A stretch of 64,000 nucleotides of DNA from a bacterium (lineage in GTDB: Bacteria > UBA8248): positions 2,368,001-2,432,000 of the forward strand of contig OY843592.1 of the NCBI GenBank assembly GCA_963692865.2, given 5' to 3'. A program made the position numbers and the translations under genes. Positions 25,742 to 32,479 of this stretch are shown piece after piece. The notes beneath the pieces are model-generated. The model was not told where the DNA came from, made no database searches, and saw nothing but the letters and a program-made list of their open reading frames with translations. Position 1 is the stretch's first letter; each line of letters begins with the position of its first letter.

Positions 25742-26167
25742 ATGACATACGTGTTCGATTGGGACGACGGCGAAAAGATTGAGATGGTGGACATCGAACT
25801 GCCCCGGGGCTGGCGCATCCTCATCGACCCCCGGAACACGAACTCCCGAATGCTCAGCATGGGGAACCAGGACATTCCCGTCGGCGGCGGAATCCCCGTC
25901 CATCTTCATGAAAAAGAAGAGGAAATCCTCTTCTTCCACGAGGGTGAAGCCGAGGTGGAGGTGGACGGCGAGGTCTACCAGGTCAAGGCGGGCATGACCG
26001 CCTTTCTGCCCGTGGGCGTGGAGCACGGCTTGAGAAACACCGGCGACGTTCCCCTGAAACTCCTTTGGTTCTTCTCACCGCCGGGATACGAGGAAATCTT
26101 CCGCCACATGGCGGACATCGACACCGACCACGGCAAGTACGAAGAACTGCACCCGAGGGAGGTGTAG
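25742..26167 (+). CDS. Cupin domain protein
   Basis: HLHEKEEE...G and P.GVEHGLRN cupin motifs. Confidence 0.88.
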   Translation: MTYVFDWDDGEKIEMVDIELPRGWRILIDPRNTNSRMLSMGNQDIPVGGGIPVHLHEKEEEILFFHEGEAEVEVDGEVYQVKAGMTAFLPVGVEHGLRNTGDVPLKLLWFFSPPGYEEIFRHMADIDTDHGKYEELHPREV

Positions 26168-26315
26168 GTTTGCATGGTGGTCAAAGTAGGGACTGCTCCA
26201 CTGATTTGAGTCAGTGTTCACGCGCAGAGAGGATGCAGTTGAGGATAGAATAAACTACCTTTAAGAGACGACAACTTAGTTCACATTAAGCAGCAGACAT
26301 TCGATATAAAGGCGC

Positions 26316-27182
26316 ATGGAAGAAATTCAAAATATAATTGCCAAGTACGATGAAGCTTATGTTCGCGATTGTATCGAGTCGGTTGATGACATCAATCGCT
26401 ATGCCTTGGCTTTCTATAAGGACGTAGCAGAGATTTACGATGCAGTAACACGCGTAAGAAATGTTCAGCGAAATCCAACGGGTTTCTCTCTCCAAGACGC
26501 ACCGATTCTTGGTCTTCTTGTAAAACATTGGAAGCTCTTTAAGCTCATGCTCAGGTTCTACGAGGAAACTAACGCCGAGTTCATTTCCATTGTAGAGAGA
26601 CCTTTAATCGAAGCTTCCGTCATAGCCACATATCTGCTGCAGCACGAAGATTCTGTAGTGGAGGATTATCGTCTTTGTTCATATAAGGGCAGACTCCGAA
26701 TATTACGAGATATTGAAAACGGTTCTCCTTTTTTCGAGACCAAGGCGGGACAGAGACTTCTTAAGTCTGTCAGAGATAAACTCGCTATTGAAGGATTAGA
26801 CGCAAATAGTTTCTCAGTTCAGAAAAAGAATAAATGGCGATTACAAGGAAAACGCTTCTATGACATCTTTGATGAGGTCGTAGGCAAAGAATTATATGCT
26901 TGCGTATATGGCATGATGTCAGAGTCAGTACACGGGTCTTGGAATGAATCAATGGACTGGGATTTAATACGAAACGAAGATGGAACTTTTTCAACTTATC
27001 CTTTTTTTCATCCCCCAGACATACGATTTGTTTCACCCACAATTCAATTCTCAACGCCCCCTTATCGTCTATGGCTCACGAGAATCGCCGTTGACGACGA
27101 ATATCTCGTTGAAGTCCTTACTTGGGTGGAGAAATTCAATGAATTTCTTTTTCGCAAGTTTGACGATCTTTTCGATGGCTAA
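26316..27182 (+). CDS. DUF5677-like hypothetical protein, low GC
   Basis: R.LIE and Y..MSESVHGSW motifs. Visibly more AT-rich than its neighbours. Confidence 0.65.
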   Translation: MEEIQNIIAKYDEAYVRDCIESVDDINRYALAFYKDVAEIYDAVTRVRNVQRNPTGFSLQDAPILGLLVKHWKLFKLMLRFYEETNAEFISIVERPLIEASVIATYLLQHEDSVVEDYRLCSYKGRLRILRDIENGSPFFETKAGQRLLKSVRDKLAIEGLDANSFSVQKKNKWRLQGKRFYDIFDEVVGKELYACVYGMMSESVHGSWNESMDWDLIRNEDGTFSTYPFFHPPDIRFVSPTIQFSTPPYRLWLTRIAVDDEYLVEVLTWVEKFNEFLFRKFDDLFDG

Positions 27183-27366
27183 GTGATTGATTATGCTAGA
27201 AGATTTGCGAATCGTTCGTTTTATTTGGGAATGAAGCACGTGCTACTTCCCCGTCACTTCTTCAAATCAATCTTCTCTATCCAGTAGTACTGCGAGAGCG
27301 CCCTCAGGCCGGAGGGCTTGACGGAGACGAGTTCGGCCGTGGAGCCGTTCACGCCGCGCATGGGCC

Positions 27367-28203
27367 CTACTGCGCCTGCGCGATGGGCGTATCCTCGCGG
27401 TTGCCCCATTCCTTCCAGGAACTCATGTAGTTTTTCACCTTCGGGTAATCCAGGAGCCTTAAAGCGAAGTAACCGTGCGCCGCACGGTAGCCCGTCTGTC
27501 AGTAGGCGGTCACTTCTTTCTCGGGCGTGACGCCGATGGCCTCGAACTGCGCGCGAAGCTCGGCAGCAGGCTTCATCTCGCCCTCCGGCGTCAGGTGCTG
27601 CAGCCACTCCTGCCAGACCGCGCCGGGGATGATGCCGCCGCGCCTGGCGCGCACGCTCGTCGCCTCCCACTCCCCTATCGAACGGGTGTCGAGCAGCACG
27701 TGGTTGTCGTCCTCGATGGCCGCCAGCACGTCCTCGCGCGTAGCGAGTCGGTGCGGCTCGAACGCCATCTGGAAAGATGCGGCTTTGGGCGCCTCGGCGT
27801 CGCGCGTCGTCTCGAAGCCCGCCCGTTCCCATGCGCCATAGCCGCCGTCGAGCACGTGGACGTCCTTGTGGCCGAAAAGCTCCAGCATCCAGAAGCCGCG
27901 CACGCTCGTGTTGCCGACGAAATCGTCGTAGAAGACGATGGTGTTCTCGAACGAAACCCCCCGGTTCCCGAGCAGGAACGCCCACATGGAGAAGAAATTC
28001 CTCAAGGGCGCCTCGTCCGAGTCGTCGCTGTTCACGCCGTAGACGTCGAAATGCCGCGCGCCGGGGATGTGGCCCATCGTGTAGCGCTCGCCGGGGCGCG
28101 CGTCGATGATTCTCAAGTTCGGGTCGTCCATGCGCTCTTTTAATTGTTCGGCCGACCAGAGCAGGCCGGGGTTCGCATACCCTTTCGGGTTGTCGCTCGT
28201 CAT
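27367..28203 (-). CDS. Two-domain rhodanese/sulfurtransferase, probable selenoprotein (in-frame TGA at 27499-27501)
   Basis: DAR...Y..GHIPGA, VLDGG..AW, LDTRS..E, G.IPGA, then [39 protein letters not shown] to TAG at 27367. Confidence 0.88.
27472..27488 (-). promoter_or_regulatory. Putative bacterial SECIS hairpin
   Basis: The minus strand reads TGA-CAGACGGGCT-ACCGTGC-GGC-GCACGGT: a 7-bp stem with a G-starting loop 17 nt after the UGA. Confidence 0.65.
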
Positions 28204-28217
28204 GGTGTTCTCCTCCG

Positions 28218-28964
28218 CTAGTCCGTCCAGAAGCCGCCGTTCACGTCCACCGCCTCTCCGTTGATGTGCGCGGCCTCCTCGCTCGTGAGGAACAGGACGG
28301 TGTGCCACACGTCCTCGGGCGTCGTGAGCCTGCCCATGGGGTGCGCCTTCTCGGCGTTCACGAGCATCTCGGGCGGGGACTGGAAGTGAAGGCCCGTATC
28401 GGCCGGGCCGGGCTGGATGGTGTTGATCGTAACCCCCGTCCTGGCGAGTTCGCGCGCCAGGTTGAACGTCATGGCGAGCAGGCCCGCCTTGGCGGCGGAG
28501 TAGGTGAGGTTGGGGCCGATGCCCCCCATCTTGCCCGCGATGGACGCGAAGCTGAGGATGCGCCCCGTGCCCGAGGCCTTGAGCGCCTCGATGGTCTCCT
28601 GGATGCAGAAATACGGCGCCAGGAGGTTCACGTTCAGCACGACGTTCCAGTCTTCCTCTTCGAGTTCCATCGGCGGGCGAATCGGCATGTAGCCGGCCAC
28701 GTTCGCCAGCACGTCGCAGCCGCCCAGCCATTCGAGCGCCGCGCGCATGGTGGCGCGGATGGCGTCCACGTCGGCCAGGTCGCAGGGGAGCTTGAAGAGT
28801 TGATCGGATGGGCCTTCTATCGCGTCGAAGGCAGGGCCTTCCCTGTCGGTGGCGAAAACCCTGGCGCCGGCTTCGATATAGCCTTGCAGGATGCGCTTTC
28901 CCATCGCCCCCGCCGCGCCCGTGAGGATGACCTTCCGGCCCTGGAAATCAAAACGAATGGGCAT
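28218..28964 (-). CDS. SDR-family oxidoreductase
   Basis: TGAAGAMG, NVAG, YSAAK, DVNGG. Co-oriented and 15 bp upstream of the sulfurtransferase. Confidence 0.9.
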   Translation of the reverse strand: MPIRFDFQGRKVILTGAAGAMGKRILQGYIEAGARVFATDREGPAFDAIEGPSDQLFKLPCDLADVDAIRATMRAALEWLGGCDVLANVAGYMPIRPPMELEEEDWNVVLNVNLLAPYFCIQETIEALKASGTGRILSFASIAGKMGGIGPNLTYSAAKAGLLAMTFNLARELARTGVTINTIQPGPADTGLHFQSPPEMLVNAEKAHPMGRLTTPEDVWHTVLFLTSEEAAHINGEAVDVNGGFWTD

Positions 28965-29307
28965 TGCGTCACTCCAGTTCTTATGGTTCGGCATGAATGG
29001 AATCTATAATTCGGTTTCCGATGCGCCGGATGATACACCACATACCGAAGGTGAGAAAGCGGGCGGGGGAAGTTCTTCTGCATGGCGAAAGGCCCCATGT
29101 GCGCCGTTTTTCGGGGTTTTGTTTTGCCTGTCCAGTTGTTATAATTCGCGCATCGAAGCCAAGCGAAACGCCATCGCGTTCCGTCGAGCCCAGGTGGGAT
29201 GGCGGTGGGAGGTAATGGACGTATCTGCATATCAATCAGACAAAGGACAAGACCATAAAAGCGCCCTGCGGCATGTGGTTTGGCGCCACAAACGAGTGGA
29301 GGTTGTG

Positions 29308-31593
29308 ATGGCTGAACTCTCATACATCGGGAAAAGCGTTCCTCGCGTCGATGGGCCGGAGAAGGTGACGGGCCGGGCCATGTTCACCCTGGACCTTCAA
29401 TTGCCCAAAATGCTCCACGGGAGGCTGCTGGGAAGCCCCCTGCCGCACGCGCGGATCAAGAATATCGACACCAGCCGCGCCGAGAGGCTCCCCGGCGTCA
29501 AGCTCATCATGACGCACAAGGACATTCCCGAGGGAGTGGAGTGGGGCGTCGTGCCCGTCTGCTACGATCAGCGTCCTCTCGCCTCGGACAAGGTGCGCCA
29601 CGTGGGCGACTCGGTGGCTGCCGTCGTGGCGATTTCAGAAGACATCGCGATAGAAGCGCTCGATCTGATCGACGTGGACTACGAGGAGCTTCCCGCCGTC
29701 TTCGATCCGAGAGAAGCGATGCAGGAGGGCGCCCCCGTCATTCATGACAGGTACCCGGACAACATCGCCTTCACCAAGCACATGGAATTCGGCGAGGTGG
29801 ACCGCATGTTCGACGAGGCTCACCACGTGAGCGAGCTGGCCACATCCTCCTCGCGCCAGATGCACGGCTCTTTGGAGGCGCACGTCTCCATCGCCGAGTG
29901 GTCGCAGAAGGGCGACGTGACGGTCTACAACTCCTCGCAATGCCCGAGTCTATCGAGCCAGTATTTCTCCAAACTCCTGAAGATTCCAGAGGCCCAGATT
30001 CGCGTGATCACGAACTACGTGGGCGGAGGGTTCGGCGGAAAGGCGACGAGCAAGTTCAACATCGATTTCCTCTCCATCATCGCGGCGAAAAAGCTGGACC
30101 TTCCCGTGAAATTCTATTACACGCGCGAAGAGGAGTTCCTGCTCGGCACCCACCGGACGAAGCAGTTCCACGTCTGGCGTCTCGCCACCGACAAGGACGG
30201 CATGCTGCTCGCGCGCGACACCCGGATGGTGGTGGAAAACGGCGGCTATTCCGATTACAGCCCGGCGGTCGGCGGCATCACGGCGCACATGGGCGGTAGC
30301 ATCTACAACTACAAGGCCTATCGCCACCACGCGGACGTCGTCTGCACGAACGTCCCGCCCGGCGGCGCGATGCGCGGAATCGGCAACGCGGGCTATGCGT
30401 TCGGGTCGGAGCTCGCCATGGAGAAACACGCCGAGGAAATCGGCATGGACCCGGCGGAGTTCCGCATCAAGAACTTCGTGAGAAGGGGCGACACCACCAT
30501 CATCGGGGCCAAGATTACGAGTTGCGGCGTATCCGAGTGCGTACAGGAAGCGGTCAAGCGCGTGCCCTGGCGCGAGAAACAGCCGAGCAGCAACGGTAAA
30601 AAGCGCGGTTTCGGGCTTGCCGCGGCGGTGCACTTCACCGGAGCGCGCGCGATGGGGCCGGAAACGGCGGGCGCGTTCATCAAGATGAACAAGGACGGCA
30701 CCGTGCAGTTGCTCTCCGGCACCATCGAGATGGGCAACGGCTCGGACACCACGCTCGCGCAGATTTGCGCCGAAGCGATTGGCGTTCGGATGGAGGACGT
30801 GCGGATCATCAACGGCGATACCGCGGTGAACCCCTACGGATGGGGCGTGCGCGGAAGCCGCACGACGACCATCGACGGCGAGGCCACGCGCCTGGCGTCC
30901 GTGCAGGCGAAGAACATGCTCTTCAAGGGCGCGGCCGAGTTGCTCGAATGCGACCCGAATGACCTCGACGCGCGAGACGGCAAGATTTTCGTCACAAGCT
31001 CTCCCGAGCGGCAGGTGACCCACAGCGAAGCCTACATGAAGATATATGAAAAAGAGGGCAGCGAGGCCGTCTACACGGCGTCTTCGTACGACTCGCCGAG
31101 CGAGACGCCGGACCCCGTTACGGGCTACGGAAACTGGTCCGCCGCCTACGCCTACGGCGCCAAGGTGGCGGAAGTGGAAGTGGACACCGAAACCGGGGCG
31201 TACGAGGTCTTGCGCGTCATCAGCACGAACGACTGCGGAACCATCGTGAACCCCGCCGGCGCGCAGGGCCAGTTGGACGGCGGCGCGCTCATGGGCGTGG
31301 GCTACGCCATGATGGAGGATTTCGAGTGCGAGGACGGCATGCCGGTGAACGCGAACTGGCTCGACTACAAACTGCCCACGACCCAGGATTTGCCCGAACT
31401 CGAAGCGGTGCTCATCGAGACGGAAAATCCCTCGGGGCCTTACGGGGCAAAAGGGTTGGGCGAGATGGCGCAACTCGGGACGTCTGCGGCGATAGGCAAC
31501 GCGATCTATGACGCCGTGGGCGTGCGGATCACCTCGCTGCCGATTACGCCGGAGAAGGTGCTGGCCGCGTTGAACGAGAAGAACGGCGAATAA
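29308..31593 (+). CDS. Xanthine dehydrogenase family molybdopterin-binding (large) subunit
   Basis: IGKSVPRVDGPEKVTG, VGGGFGGK, GAMRGIG, EMGNGSDT, GQLDGG, GPYGAKGLGE. Confidence 0.93.
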   Translation: MAELSYIGKSVPRVDGPEKVTGRAMFTLDLQLPKMLHGRLLGSPLPHARIKNIDTSRAERLPGVKLIMTHKDIPEGVEWGVVPVCYDQRPLASDKVRHVGDSVAAVVAISEDIAIEALDLIDVDYEELPAVFDPREAMQEGAPVIHDRYPDNIAFTKHMEFGEVDRMFDEAHHVSELATSSSRQMHGSLEAHVSIAEWSQKGDVTVYNSSQCPSLSSQYFSKLLKIPEAQIRVITNYVGGGFGGKATSKFNIDFLSIIAAKKLDLPVKFYYTREEEFLLGTHRTKQFHVWRLATDKDGMLLARDTRMVVENGGYSDYSPAVGGITAHMGGSIYNYKAYRHHADVVCTNVPPGGAMRGIGNAGYAFGSELAMEKHAEEIGMDPAEFRIKNFVRRGDTTIIGAKITSCGVSECVQEAVKRVPWREKQPSSNGKKRGFGLAAAVHFTGARAMGPETAGAFIKMNKDGTVQLLSGTIEMGNGSDTTLAQICAEAIGVRMEDVRIINGDTAVNPYGWGVRGSRTTTIDGEATRLASVQAKNMLFKGAAELLECDPNDLDARDGKIFVTSSPERQVTHSEAYMKIYEKEGSEAVYTASSYDSPSETPDPVTGYGNWSAAYAYGAKVAEVEVDTETGAYEVLRVISTNDCGTIVNPAGAQGQLDGGALMGVGYAMMEDFECEDGMPVNANWLDYKLPTTQDLPELEAVLIETENPSGPYGAKGLGEMAQLGTSAAIGNAIYDAVGVRITSLPITPEKVLAALNEKNGE

Positions 31594-31612
31594 CGAGAGA
31601 GGGGAGAGAAAA

Positions 31613-32479
31613 ATGGCTTTTCGGCATCTACCCGCGAACAGCGCGGAGGAAACGCTCGCCGCCCTGAAGGAGCATGGCGACGACGGAAAAGTTTACGCAG
31701 GCGGCGTGGCCCTCTCGATTCTCATGAAATCGGGGGTGTACGAACCCGAGGTGTTGATAGACATCGCCGGCGCGGGCGATCTGGATTTCATCGAAGGGAC
31801 CGATAACGGCGGTATCCGGGTCGGGGCGAAGACGGTGCACCGCAAGCTCGAACTCTCCCCGCTCGTCCAGGAGCGCTTCCCGCTCCTCGCGGAAATCTTT
31901 CATAACGTGGCGACGATTCGCATCCGAAGCCAGGGAACGGTTGGCGGCAACCTGTGCTTTGCGGAACCGGCGTCTGATCCTCCCGGCGCATTTCTTGCCC
32001 TGGAAGCCCGCATGAACACGAGGAAGGCGGACGGAACGGAACGCGTGATTCCGGCGGCGGAGTTCTGGACGGGATATTACGAGTGCGCCCTGGATGAGGA
32101 TGAGTTGCTCTGCTCGATAGAGGTCGACCCGCTGCCCGACGGCTTCCGTACGGCGTGCACGCGCTTCACGACGCGCTCGAAAGAGGACAAGCCCTGCGTG
32201 TCCGTCTCCACGGCGGTGCTCACCGAAGAGGACGGCAAGACGGCCAGGGAGGTGAGAATCGGCCTGGGCGGCGTGGAGGCCGTTTTCAGGCGTCTTACGG
32301 CGGCGGAAGAGGGCCTTCAAGGTATGGAACTCAACCAGGAGAACATCGACGCCGTGCTCGCGGATAAGCTCGACGACCTGGAGCCGCTGACCGATATACG
32401 CGCGAGCGGCGACTACAGGCGGCAGGTGACGCCCGTCCTGGTTCGGCGAACTATCCTGAAGGCGCTGGGCGCATCCTGA
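31613..32479 (+). CDS. Xanthine dehydrogenase family FAD-binding (medium) subunit
   Basis: YAGG, IR.QGTVGGNLC.A.PASD, DIRASGDYR. Confidence 0.92.
   Translation: MAFRHLPANSAEETLAALKEHGDDGKVYAGGVALSILMKSGVYEPEVLIDIAGAGDLDFIEGTDNGGIRVGAKTVHRKLELSPLVQERFPLLAEIFHNVATIRIRSQGTVGGNLCFAEPASDPPGAFLALEARMNTRKADGTERVIPAAEFWTGYYECALDEDELLCSIEVDPLPDGFRTACTRFTTRSKEDKPCVSVSTAVLTEEDGKTAREVRIGLGGVEAVFRRLTAAEEGLQGMELNQENIDAVLADKLDDLEPLTDIRASGDYRRQVTPVLVRRTILKALGAS

Follow-up and report, generated by a model that had tools for sequence, protein, structure and literature searches.

A tandem-domain rhodanese gene with an in-frame UGA at its catalytic codon and a SECIS-like hairpin, a probable bacterial selenoprotein

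Is the TGA at which a bacterial rhodanese gene appears to end a stop codon, or is it read as selenocysteine (Sec) so that the catalytic domain can be completed? The gene lies on the minus strand of a 64-kb window, the whole stretch of DNA analysed here. We consider it very probable that it is a genuine selenoprotein gene, which would encode a 278-residue two-domain rhodanese-type sulfurtransferase with Sec, specified by UGA codon 235, as its single catalytic residue; SelB binding, selenium insertion, substrate and physiological role we infer.

The reading frame and its catalytic codon

The gene starts with an ATG at 28203..28201 (minus strand), 6 nt downstream of a Shine-Dalgarno-like GGAGGAG (28210..28216, minus strand) that directly follows the TAG of an upstream SDR gene. 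The frame remains open as far as a TGA at 27501..27499, after the residues EVTAY, and runs on past it for a further 43 codons to a TAG at 27369..27367. Translated with TGA as Sec (U), the complete coding sequence (27367..28203, minus strand) yields 278 residues followed by the TAG. The succession of VTAY, in-frame TGA, 43 more codons and TAG had been described in a previous sequence-only reading and is found as such on the minus strand. Two stretches of the product match Pfam PF00581 (Rhodanese, E=3.2e-34). The best of these, residues 17-127 (27823..28155, minus strand), corresponds to the N-terminal rhodanese domain, which has no catalytic Cys and whose counterpart in the alignment is the N-terminal domain of 1e0c; in tandem rhodaneses the N-terminal domain is the inactive one. 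The C-terminal catalytic domain, approximately residues 155-272 (27388..27741, minus strand), spans the UGA and contains U235. Its place among the two-domain enzymes follows from alignment with three structures of that architecture (1e0c, 1uar and 1urh): the alignments are full-length and extend through residues 274-277. The product is, judged by its sequence, a predicted tandem-domain sulfurtransferase (RhdA/SseA-like, COG2897-type).

Which residue would be expected at the UGA? Alignment to Cys homologs places the in-frame UGA (27499..27501, minus strand) at the catalytic position. The column of U235 holds the Cys of HCQTHHRS (1e0c), YCRIAERS (1uar) and SCGSGVTA (1urh), three solved rhodaneses, and Cys stands opposite U235 in each of the 11 full-length homologs that we aligned. 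This catalytic Cys starts the six-residue active-site loop of the C-terminal domain, and Sec would fill its position here. The earlier placement of the TGA at the active-site Cys of the second domain is thus borne out by structures and homologs alike, the Cys/TGA pairing falling at exactly the U235 column. Not a single Cys occurs in the whole translated product, and U235 is its sole thiol/selenol residue. Without readthrough, a 234-residue product would miss the final third of the catalytic rhodanese domain.

Elsewhere TGA behaves as an ordinary stop, as had been supposed: it ends 36 of 59 stop-to-stop frames of at least 300 codons in the 64-kb window and 1062 of 1983 frames of at least 400 codons in the whole genome. 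When the window was scanned for TGA codons followed by a hairpin of at least 6 bp, a requirement that other selenoprotein genes could escape, the rhodanese TGA was the only one with in-frame third-position GC highest on both sides.

The SECIS-like hairpin and the selenocysteine machinery

Downstream of the UGA we found a SECIS-like hairpin (27472..27488, minus strand) within the codons for Y239-G244. A perfect 7-bp stem pairs ACCGTGC (27488..27482) with GCACGGT (27478..27472) around a GGC loop (27481..27479); the stem begins 10 nt past the UGA and the first loop G lies 17 nt past it, exactly as first read from the letters. The 10-nt spacer (27489..27498, minus strand) comprises the codons for Q236, T237 and G238 and the first base of Y239, and its only variable site among Sec forms is the third position of the Thr codon. 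The centroid structure contains no helix other than this hairpin (-10.2 kcal/mol). The bacterial SECIS model, as set out in PMC13188914 and its Fig. 2 legend, has a loop of 3-9 nt, an upper stem of 4-16 bp, a G in the first two loop positions, a spacing of 16-37 nt and an MFE <= -7.5 kcal/mol. With a 3-nt loop, a 7-bp stem, GG at loop positions 1-2, a distance of 17 nt and -10.2 kcal/mol, the hairpin lies within each of these constraints of the published model, and the proposed fit to the bacterial SECIS consensus holds.

How unusual is such a hairpin? The model is permissive. Perfect hairpins of at least 7 bp that fit it follow 2320 and 2329 of 200000 random positions per strand of this genome (1.2%), and narrower criteria (spacing 16-19, loop 3-5) reduce this to 0.12%. 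The 65 nt past the UGA fold no better than their shuffles (z = 0.11), and we dropped folding energy as evidence for the hairpin. Because of this chance rate of 1.2% and this z value, the hairpin by itself is only mildly unusual; it is its conservation, not its energy, that exceeds chance. An Rfam scan of 26000-30000 (E<=1) gave no match, which weighs little, as a general bacterial SECIS model is perhaps absent from Rfam.

The conservation itself has several aspects. Of the 32 genomes with a Sec form, 27 have a perfect stem and five a single mismatch, caused by stem-weakening U-to-C changes: an internal C.A (two genomes) or an A.C at the base of the stem (three). No compensatory base-pair change occurs in the stem among these 32 genomes, and since all variation weakens the stem, its support comes from conservation and not from covariation. 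Across 23 sequences, the hairpin lies inside the most nucleotide-conserved 33-nt window of the gene: from the TGA to +32, 4 of 33 columns vary, compared with 402 of 816 overall. In part, this could stem from selection on the amino acids of the active-site loop. That such constraint is the whole explanation is made less likely by the synonymous sites, which are frozen as well; in eight pairs, dS is 0-0.34 for codons 236-245 versus 0.35-1.19 upstream. In all three Cys forms the stem is broken, with no run of more than 3 consecutive pairs left. Their residues are YR-S-AH-A-Y, where the Sec forms, which have the 7-bp stem, show YR-A-AH-G-Y; the presence of the stem in Sec forms and its absence from Cys forms is the only paired change observed. 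Ser241Ala and Ala244Gly, in and after the active-site loop, are the substitutions that completed the stem in the Sec lineage.

Does the genome hold the machinery to decode a Sec codon? A search for selA, selB, selC and selD, suggested together with the selenoprotein reading, returned the complete set, each gene scoring above its own family cut-off: selA at 505 bits, selB, which adjoins selA, at 392 bits, the tRNA-Sec (selC) at 76.7 bits with anticodon UCA, and selD, which itself contains one in-frame TGA, at a KAGG-U-GSK site. The element of selD (6-bp stem, GGA loop, 17 nt past the UGA) is in the same style as that of the rhodanese. Seven further TGA-interrupted ORFs of the genome match typical selenoprotein families, one of them the UGSC family NF041046 (157.9 bits, cut-off 125 bits), and six of the seven fold to stems with G-containing loops (GGC, GUG, GGUC, GGUUCCG, UGUAU) placed 16-21 nt past the UGA. 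These seven were chosen by eye from genome-wide TGA-plus-hairpin scans and then checked, and do not constitute a census; the scans are too noisy for counting, since at the high GC content of this genome a simple GC3 filter lets through out-of-frame and antisense frames too.

In the mechanism we propose, which follows the known bacterial route of Sec insertion, the hairpin would act as a SECIS and bind SelB with GTP and Sec-tRNA(Sec), upon which the ribosome would insert Sec rather than terminate, and then complete the catalytic domain. During sulfane-sulfur transfer, the predicted enzyme would probably alternate between a selenolate and an Se-S(-) form, with no internal thiol as a resolving partner, because the product lacks Cys.

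Could the UGA be read through with a residue other than Sec? When selenium is scarce, a mischarged tRNA-Sec might deliver Cys, or near-cognate suppression might place Trp or some other residue there; the hairpin would then be a readthrough stimulator only. Such an explanation would accommodate a hairpin without covariation and of ordinary stability, and Sec at codon 235 is a prediction from sequence. However, the codon falls in the column of the catalytic Cys, where a working rhodanese takes Cys or Sec only, the full Sec pathway is present in the genome, and the hairpin both fits the SECIS model and resembles the element of the genome's own selD. We therefore regard insertion of another residue as very improbable.

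Distribution, origin and selection

In a survey of 51 genomes of the phylum, an ortholog of at least 74% identity was found in 32 genomes (G000 included) from four genera, and the TGA is kept in all 32. TGC or TGT at this codon, which had been named as evidence against Sec, is thus absent from these independent assemblies. In one more genome (G021), the contig ends within the gene, at residue 198. The nearest orthologs lacking the stop, three at 66-70% identity, have TGC instead. In a tree built with the U/C column counted as a gap, all 32 Sec rows group in a single clade (SH-aLRT 100) that lies within the Cys forms, and one change is needed. By this comparison of sequences, the Sec form appears to have arisen once, from a Cys ancestor, inside one bacterial family. 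The 32 genomes represent few independent events, because they are kin from one family and the tree needs one.

The codons past the TGA are under purifying selection. In eight pairs, dN/dS of codons 236-272 is 0.018-0.226, compared with 0.11-0.19 upstream of the TGA. This bears on the question whether the TGA is a true stop, which would leave a 234-residue protein lacking its catalytic residue, or a nonsense pseudogene, and would make the downstream similarity residual or a matter of RNA only. Public gene calls do end at the TGA, and 25 of the best 120 database matches are exactly 234 residues long, but gene finders give such shortened calls for any selenoprotein. Moreover, the 37 downstream codons compared combine these dN/dS values with a dS that is high outside the hairpin, all 32 genomes, from four genera and with identities as low as 74%, retain both the frame and the TGA, and termination would cost the catalytic domain its final third. 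We consider a true stop very unlikely.

We found nothing to suggest that a TGC or TGT was misread or misassembled as TGA. Such an error is effectively refuted by the identical TGA in 31 other genome assemblies; contigs of the runs X2 (27395-28300) and X4 (27371-27631) also have 0 other letters relative to the window, though these two runs are not independent of it, since they and the best holder belong to one study. RNA-library contigs bridge the TGA as well (X20, 27373-27598, 21 other letters; X23, 27310-27783, 43 other letters and 21 gaps). The evidence from all four runs consists of contigs, and because X20 and X23 derive from relatives, with 54 difference rows left out, and DNA is possible in RNA libraries, they give at most a hint of the region in metatranscriptome assemblies.

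Neighbouring genes and relation to known rhodaneses

Does the gene neighbourhood point to a function of the Sec-containing rhodanese? The SDR gene (28218..28994, minus strand; Pfam adh_short_C2, 7.9e-46) lies 5' of the rhodanese gene and is probably co-transcribed with it, a 14-nt gap separating its stop from the rhodanese ATG. A promoter and terminator scan gave one promoter-like site 5' of the SDR gene and nothing exceeding shuffle expectation. The SDR-rhodanese pair is present in 22 of 22 related loci; G039's Cys-form ortholog, a locus covered for ~0.9 kb on either side, showed no SDR in the 860 nt that precede it. Genes for Mo-hydroxylase subunits of the xanthine-dehydrogenase family (28891-32479) are transcribed divergently from the rhodanese, an arrangement shared by 19 of 22 related loci, all close kin, and absent from the three more distant ones. 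Neither the SDR nor the Mo-hydroxylase subunits reached an NCBIfam equivalog cut-off, and since the synteny is also among close kin, no specific pathway can be inferred. We consider it very unlikely that the Sec-rhodanese is, rather than a general sulfurtransferase, a dedicated donor of the terminal sulfido/selenido ligand to the Mo cofactor of the divergently transcribed enzyme; if true, such a role would tie genetically encoded Sec to a labile-selenium cofactor pathway.

The best solved relative of the product is 1e0c (149 bits, E=1.6e-42, residues 14-274), which we take to be RhdA of Azotobacter vinelandii, a tandem-domain rhodanese. Its loop opens with C-Q-T like the U-Q-T here, but has Cys and reads CQTHHRS, whereas ours reads UQTGYRA. 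E. coli SseA (3-mercaptopyruvate sulfurtransferase, 1urh; NCBIfam PRK11493) has the same two-domain architecture, aligned over residues 17-275, and a different loop, CGSGVTA. The best NCBIfam match is likewise PRK11493 / NF008557, at 147.4 bits under an equivalog cut-off of 250 bits, which ruled out naming the product a 3-mercaptopyruvate sulfurtransferase. NF041203 (rhodanese_LYCAU, form 3, CxU) was rejected at 38.2 bits against a cut-off of 115 bits and with a product that has no Cys. NCBIfam holds no model covering a Sec tandem rhodanese.

Is a Sec-containing rhodanese of this type new? Sec rhodaneses are indeed already on record, as the sequence-only reading had stated: the 'rhodanese-related sulfurtransferase' of COG2897/SseA type is a predicted selenoprotein family (PMC1088965, Table 1 and Fig. 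3 legend; PMC9312934; PMC13188914), and UxxG rhodanese selenoproteins of COG2897 type (form 4) have been predictions since 2005 (PMC1088965; PMC13188914). Where PMC9312934 classifies rhodanese selenoproteins, it places them under predicted families only. As far as these papers describe that family, our gene shares with it the two domains, the catalytic Sec, the U-x-x-G motif (here U-Q-T-G) and a predicted SECIS just downstream, and both come solely from metagenomes and MAGs; for the published AACY01016424, MQG53192.1 and MCY3690685.1, family identity is by domain type and motif only. The single-domain rhodanese selenoproteins (forms 1-3) and the TsoB rhodanese/DsbD fusion, as presented there, have the rhodanese fold with Sec in common with our gene but differ in architecture and Sec motif. 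Novelty is low because Sec rhodaneses of COG2897 type were already predicted, and supplements of the selenoproteome papers and BSepDB may already list the very same gene. The single origin, the four-genus distribution and the stem-building changes Ser241Ala and Ala244Gly are results of the present analysis.

The gene thus adds no new kind of system. Since public protein calls end it at residue 234, the records of a whole clade lack both the catalytic residue and the final third of the catalytic domain. What the locus offers is a natural Cys/Sec pair within one bacterial family, in which the Sec form has a single origin, the SECIS stem was built by two amino-acid changes, and no other Cys is present. 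Such a pair is well suited to finding out what an enzyme that carries persulfides gains from Sec.

A UGA codon at the catalytic position of a tandem rhodanese

The rhodanese gene runs on the minus strand from an ATG at 28203..28201, with GGAGGAG 6 nt and the preceding gene's TAG stop 14 nt upstream, to a TAG at 27369..27367, and it contains an in-frame TGA at codon 235 (27501..27499, minus strand) that is followed by 43 codons in frame up to the TAG. In the read-through product of 278 residues, Pfam PF00581 recognises two rhodanese domains (two stretches, E=3.2e-34). Its top NCBIfam model, the 3-mercaptopyruvate sulfurtransferase PRK11493, reaches 147.4 bits against a cut-off of 250 bits, and we therefore assign the protein to the tandem SseA/RhdA type and not to the named equivalog.

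The best structure matches were all two-domain rhodaneses, aligned over nearly their full length: 1e0c (149 bits), 1uar (148 bits) and 1urh (127 bits), which place the loops H-C-QTHHRS, Y-C-RIAERS and S-C-GSGVTA, respectively, against U235, the selenocysteine (Sec) read at codon 235. The aligned cysteines are the catalytic ones of this family. The same column is Cys in all 11 full-length homologs (276-295 residues), followed by [QN]TGYRSAHAY. The sequence-only reading had located the TGA where the active-site cysteine belongs, and both the solved structures and the homologs place it there. By the structure alignments, a product of 234 residues would miss the final third of its catalytic domain. 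The translated rhodanese contains no Cys, and its sole thiol or selenol side chain would be the one encoded by codon 235. Residue 59 (window about 28029-28027) is Ser (...VNSDD...) in the genus-level relatives, whereas more distant Sec forms (orthologs with TGA at the catalytic codon) and Cys forms (TGC or Cys there) carry Cys (...NCDD...); the window's clade has thus lost the one other cysteine.

Distribution, origin and selection

Is the in-frame TGA shared among relatives? Exactly 234 residues were found in 25 of the best 120 protein-database hits (72-93% identity, 84% query cover), and these entries are gene calls ending at the TGA; the remainder are mostly Cys forms of 276-282 residues and 51-72% identity. 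The genome collection yielded 22 full-length loci (78-93% amino-acid identity), all from MAGs labelled Nitrospinota or 'bacterium'. Every one of them has TGA at the aligned codon, and the frame stays open through ten residues and [FL]ALRLL until it meets a stop some 43 codons on. A search of 51 genomes of the phylum, which include the species of these loci, found an ortholog of at least 74% identity in 32 (the window's own among them, four genera), each with exactly one TGA within the match. A second, partial copy in one genome likewise has TGA, and in another, G021, the gene is cut at residue 198 by the contig end. The presence of TGA in all 32 genomes speaks against a misread TGC or TGT. Contigs from another two runs, X2 (27395-28300) and X4 (27371-27631), belonging to the study in which the stretch is best represented, differ from the window in no letter; they may represent the source population and are thus not independent. 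RNA-library contigs from two runs of one sponge-metatranscriptome study also span the TGA; being derived from relatives, they are by themselves no proof of transcription.

The next orthologs (66-70% identity), which belong to three further genera within the family, have TGC and no stop, so that the expected Cys/TGA pairing emerges from the alignment as TGA in 32 orthologs and TGC in the next three. More distant paralogs (32-51% identity) have no stop either. One of them, a Cys-type rhodanese of 47% identity, lies in the window's own genome (G000, contigs C1-C8) at C1:729441-730316 (+), and such a paralog is found in most relatives too. We built a maximum-likelihood tree from 51 rows, treating the U/C column as a gap. 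It unites the 32 Sec rows in a single clade (SH-aLRT 100) that lies within the Cys forms, and one Cys-to-Sec change suffices. Since the 32 Sec genomes are kin, they represent one evolutionary event and not 32.

We calculated dN/dS for eight pairs of the window with loci at 78-92% identity and obtained 0.018-0.226 downstream of the TGA (codons 236-272) and 0.11-0.19 upstream (codons 1-234, dS 0.35-1.19), while dS in codons 246-272 was 0.78 or more. The low downstream values show purifying selection on the tail at the protein level.

The candidate SECIS hairpin

Ten nucleotides after the TGA, the minus strand holds ACCGTGC-GGC-GCACGGT (27488..27472), exactly in the sequence and place that had been claimed for a candidate Sec insertion (SECIS) hairpin. 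The proposed fit to the bacterial SECIS consensus holds for the model in the legend of Fig. 2 of PMC13188914: a GGC loop (model: 3-9 nt, G at loop positions 1-2), a stem of 7 bp (4-16 bp), a spacing of 17 nt (16-37 nt) and -10.2 kcal/mol (MFE <= -7.5 kcal/mol). Starting at the UGA, a stretch of 65 nt folds no better than its shuffled versions (z = 0.11), and its centroid structure consists solely of the 7-bp hairpin (-10.2 kcal/mol). A perfect model-fitting hairpin of at least 7 bp follows a random position in G000 with a chance of 1.2%, which drops to 0.12% at a spacing of 16-19 and a loop of 3-5. The stability of the hairpin is weak evidence.

Strong evidence comes from its conservation. Across 23 sequences, no other 33-nt window of the gene is as conserved as the stretch from the TGA to +32, with 4 of 33 variable columns compared to 402 of 816 overall, and third codon positions vary in 4 of the 11 codons 235-245 compared to 220 of 272 overall; in the eight pairs, dS of codons 236-245 was 0-0.34. 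The hairpin travels with Sec: the 32 Sec-form genomes all encode YR-A-AH-G-Y and carry the stem (27 perfect, five with one mismatch), while three Cys forms of the same family encode YR-S-AH-A-Y and have at most three consecutive pairs at the stem positions. The changes that complete the stem are Ser241Ala (one base) and Ala244Gly. No compensatory change in the stem was found among the 32 Sec-form genomes; the five variants are U-to-C transitions, giving A.C at the stem base (three genomes) or an internal C.A (two genomes).

Selenocysteine decoding, gene neighbourhood and known Sec rhodaneses

The genome (4.15 Mb, 8 contigs, 97.4% complete, 6.7% contamination) holds all of selA, selB, selC and selD, the genes to be looked for according to the sequence-only reading: selA (505 bits) adjoined by selB (392 bits, above its cut-off), two identical tRNA-Sec copies on C1 and C4 (76.7 bits, anticodon UCA), and selD (335 bits; C1:65915-66877 (-)). 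The latter has one in-frame TGA at a KAGG-U-GSK site, which makes selD itself a selenoprotein gene. C2-C8 appear to duplicate parts of C1 with few changes, and peptides flanking TGAs on C2 and C5 match those on C1; together with the identical tRNA-Sec copies and the contamination value, this suggests that the bin includes contigs of strain variants. TGA is the commonest ordinary stop, ending 1062 of 1983 open frames of at least 400 codons in the genome and 36 of 59 frames of at least 300 codons in the window, where its use as a normal stop had been noted; the recoding is local, and the code itself is unchanged.

Other Sec genes of G000 share this hairpin style: the selD hairpin combines a stem of 6 bp and a GGA loop, likewise 17 nt after the UGA. 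Seven further TGA-interrupted ORFs, picked visually out of the results of a noisy scan and not a census, match selenoprotein-typical families (L085-L091; C1 near 711856, 527707, 328975, 522295, 165454, 101912 and 488544, all minus). One UGSC-family ORF passed its cut-off (157.9 against 125 bits); the other six, all below theirs, are UGSC-like, thioredoxin-like (U-x-x-C), AhpD-like (three, C-x-x-U) and peroxiredoxin-like (U-x-x-C). On folding, six of the seven form stems with G-containing loops (GGC, GUG, GGUC, GGUUCCG, UGUAU), at 16-21 nt after the UGA according to the scan.

A short-chain dehydrogenase/reductase gene (SDR; 28994..28218, minus) without specific assignment precedes the rhodanese; all 22 of 22 related loci retain the pair, whereas the Cys-form ortholog of another genome (G039) showed no SDR within 860 nt upstream. 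Genes for the Mo-binding and FAD-binding subunits of an enzyme of the xanthine dehydrogenase family (28891-32479, +), for which every NCBIfam equivalog stays below cut-off (best 4-hydroxybenzoyl-CoA reductase alpha, 615 against 995 bits), are transcribed divergently from the pair, as is a porin gene; these are kept in 19 of the 22 loci, all close kin, and absent in three more distant ones. The downstream DUF5677 gene (26316-27182, +; Pfam 5.6e-21) occurs in none of the 22 loci, has a GC content of 0.40-0.43 against about 0.6 around it, and looks like a strain-specific insertion; it sits between the rhodanese and the gene for a luciferase-like monooxygenase, in an interval whose length ranges in relatives from about 0.7 to 5.6 kb. 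This neighbourhood fixes no pathway for the rhodanese.

Sec rhodaneses had indeed been reported before. They appear in the Sargasso Sea selenoproteome ('Rhodanese-related sulfurtransferase', COG2897, three sequences with predicted SECIS; PMC1088965, Table 1, Fig. 3 legend), in GOS (eight Sec sequences of the cd01449 rhodanese-related sulfurtransferase and one 'Sulfurtransferase COG2897'; PMC2398784), in Olavius symbionts (three 'Sulfurtransferase COG2897' selenoproteins; PMC1976440) and, as the COG2897 form, among the predicted families of a review (PMC9312934), and another review lists a 'Form 4 (rhodanese-related sulfurtransferase)' with the motif UxxG (PMC13188914). MAGs labelled Nitrospinota are among the richest bacterial selenoproteomes in BSepDB, with 48-54 genes (PMC13326102). 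The window gene shares UxxG (U-Q-T-G) and the COG2897-type architecture, and by these features it most likely belongs to this catalogued, purely predicted family. In the literature consulted, Sec rhodaneses figure only as predictions; biochemical studies of them may exist.

In summary, the observation of a hidden selenoprotein was confirmed and its interpretation supported, and the rhodanese is very probably a real selenoprotein gene, for which we infer selenium insertion and SelB binding as well as substrate and role. Added here are a rhodanese without any Cys that public gene calls systematically truncate, a single Cys-to-Sec origin within one family, and two amino-acid changes that built a SECIS inside the region coding for the active-site loop.
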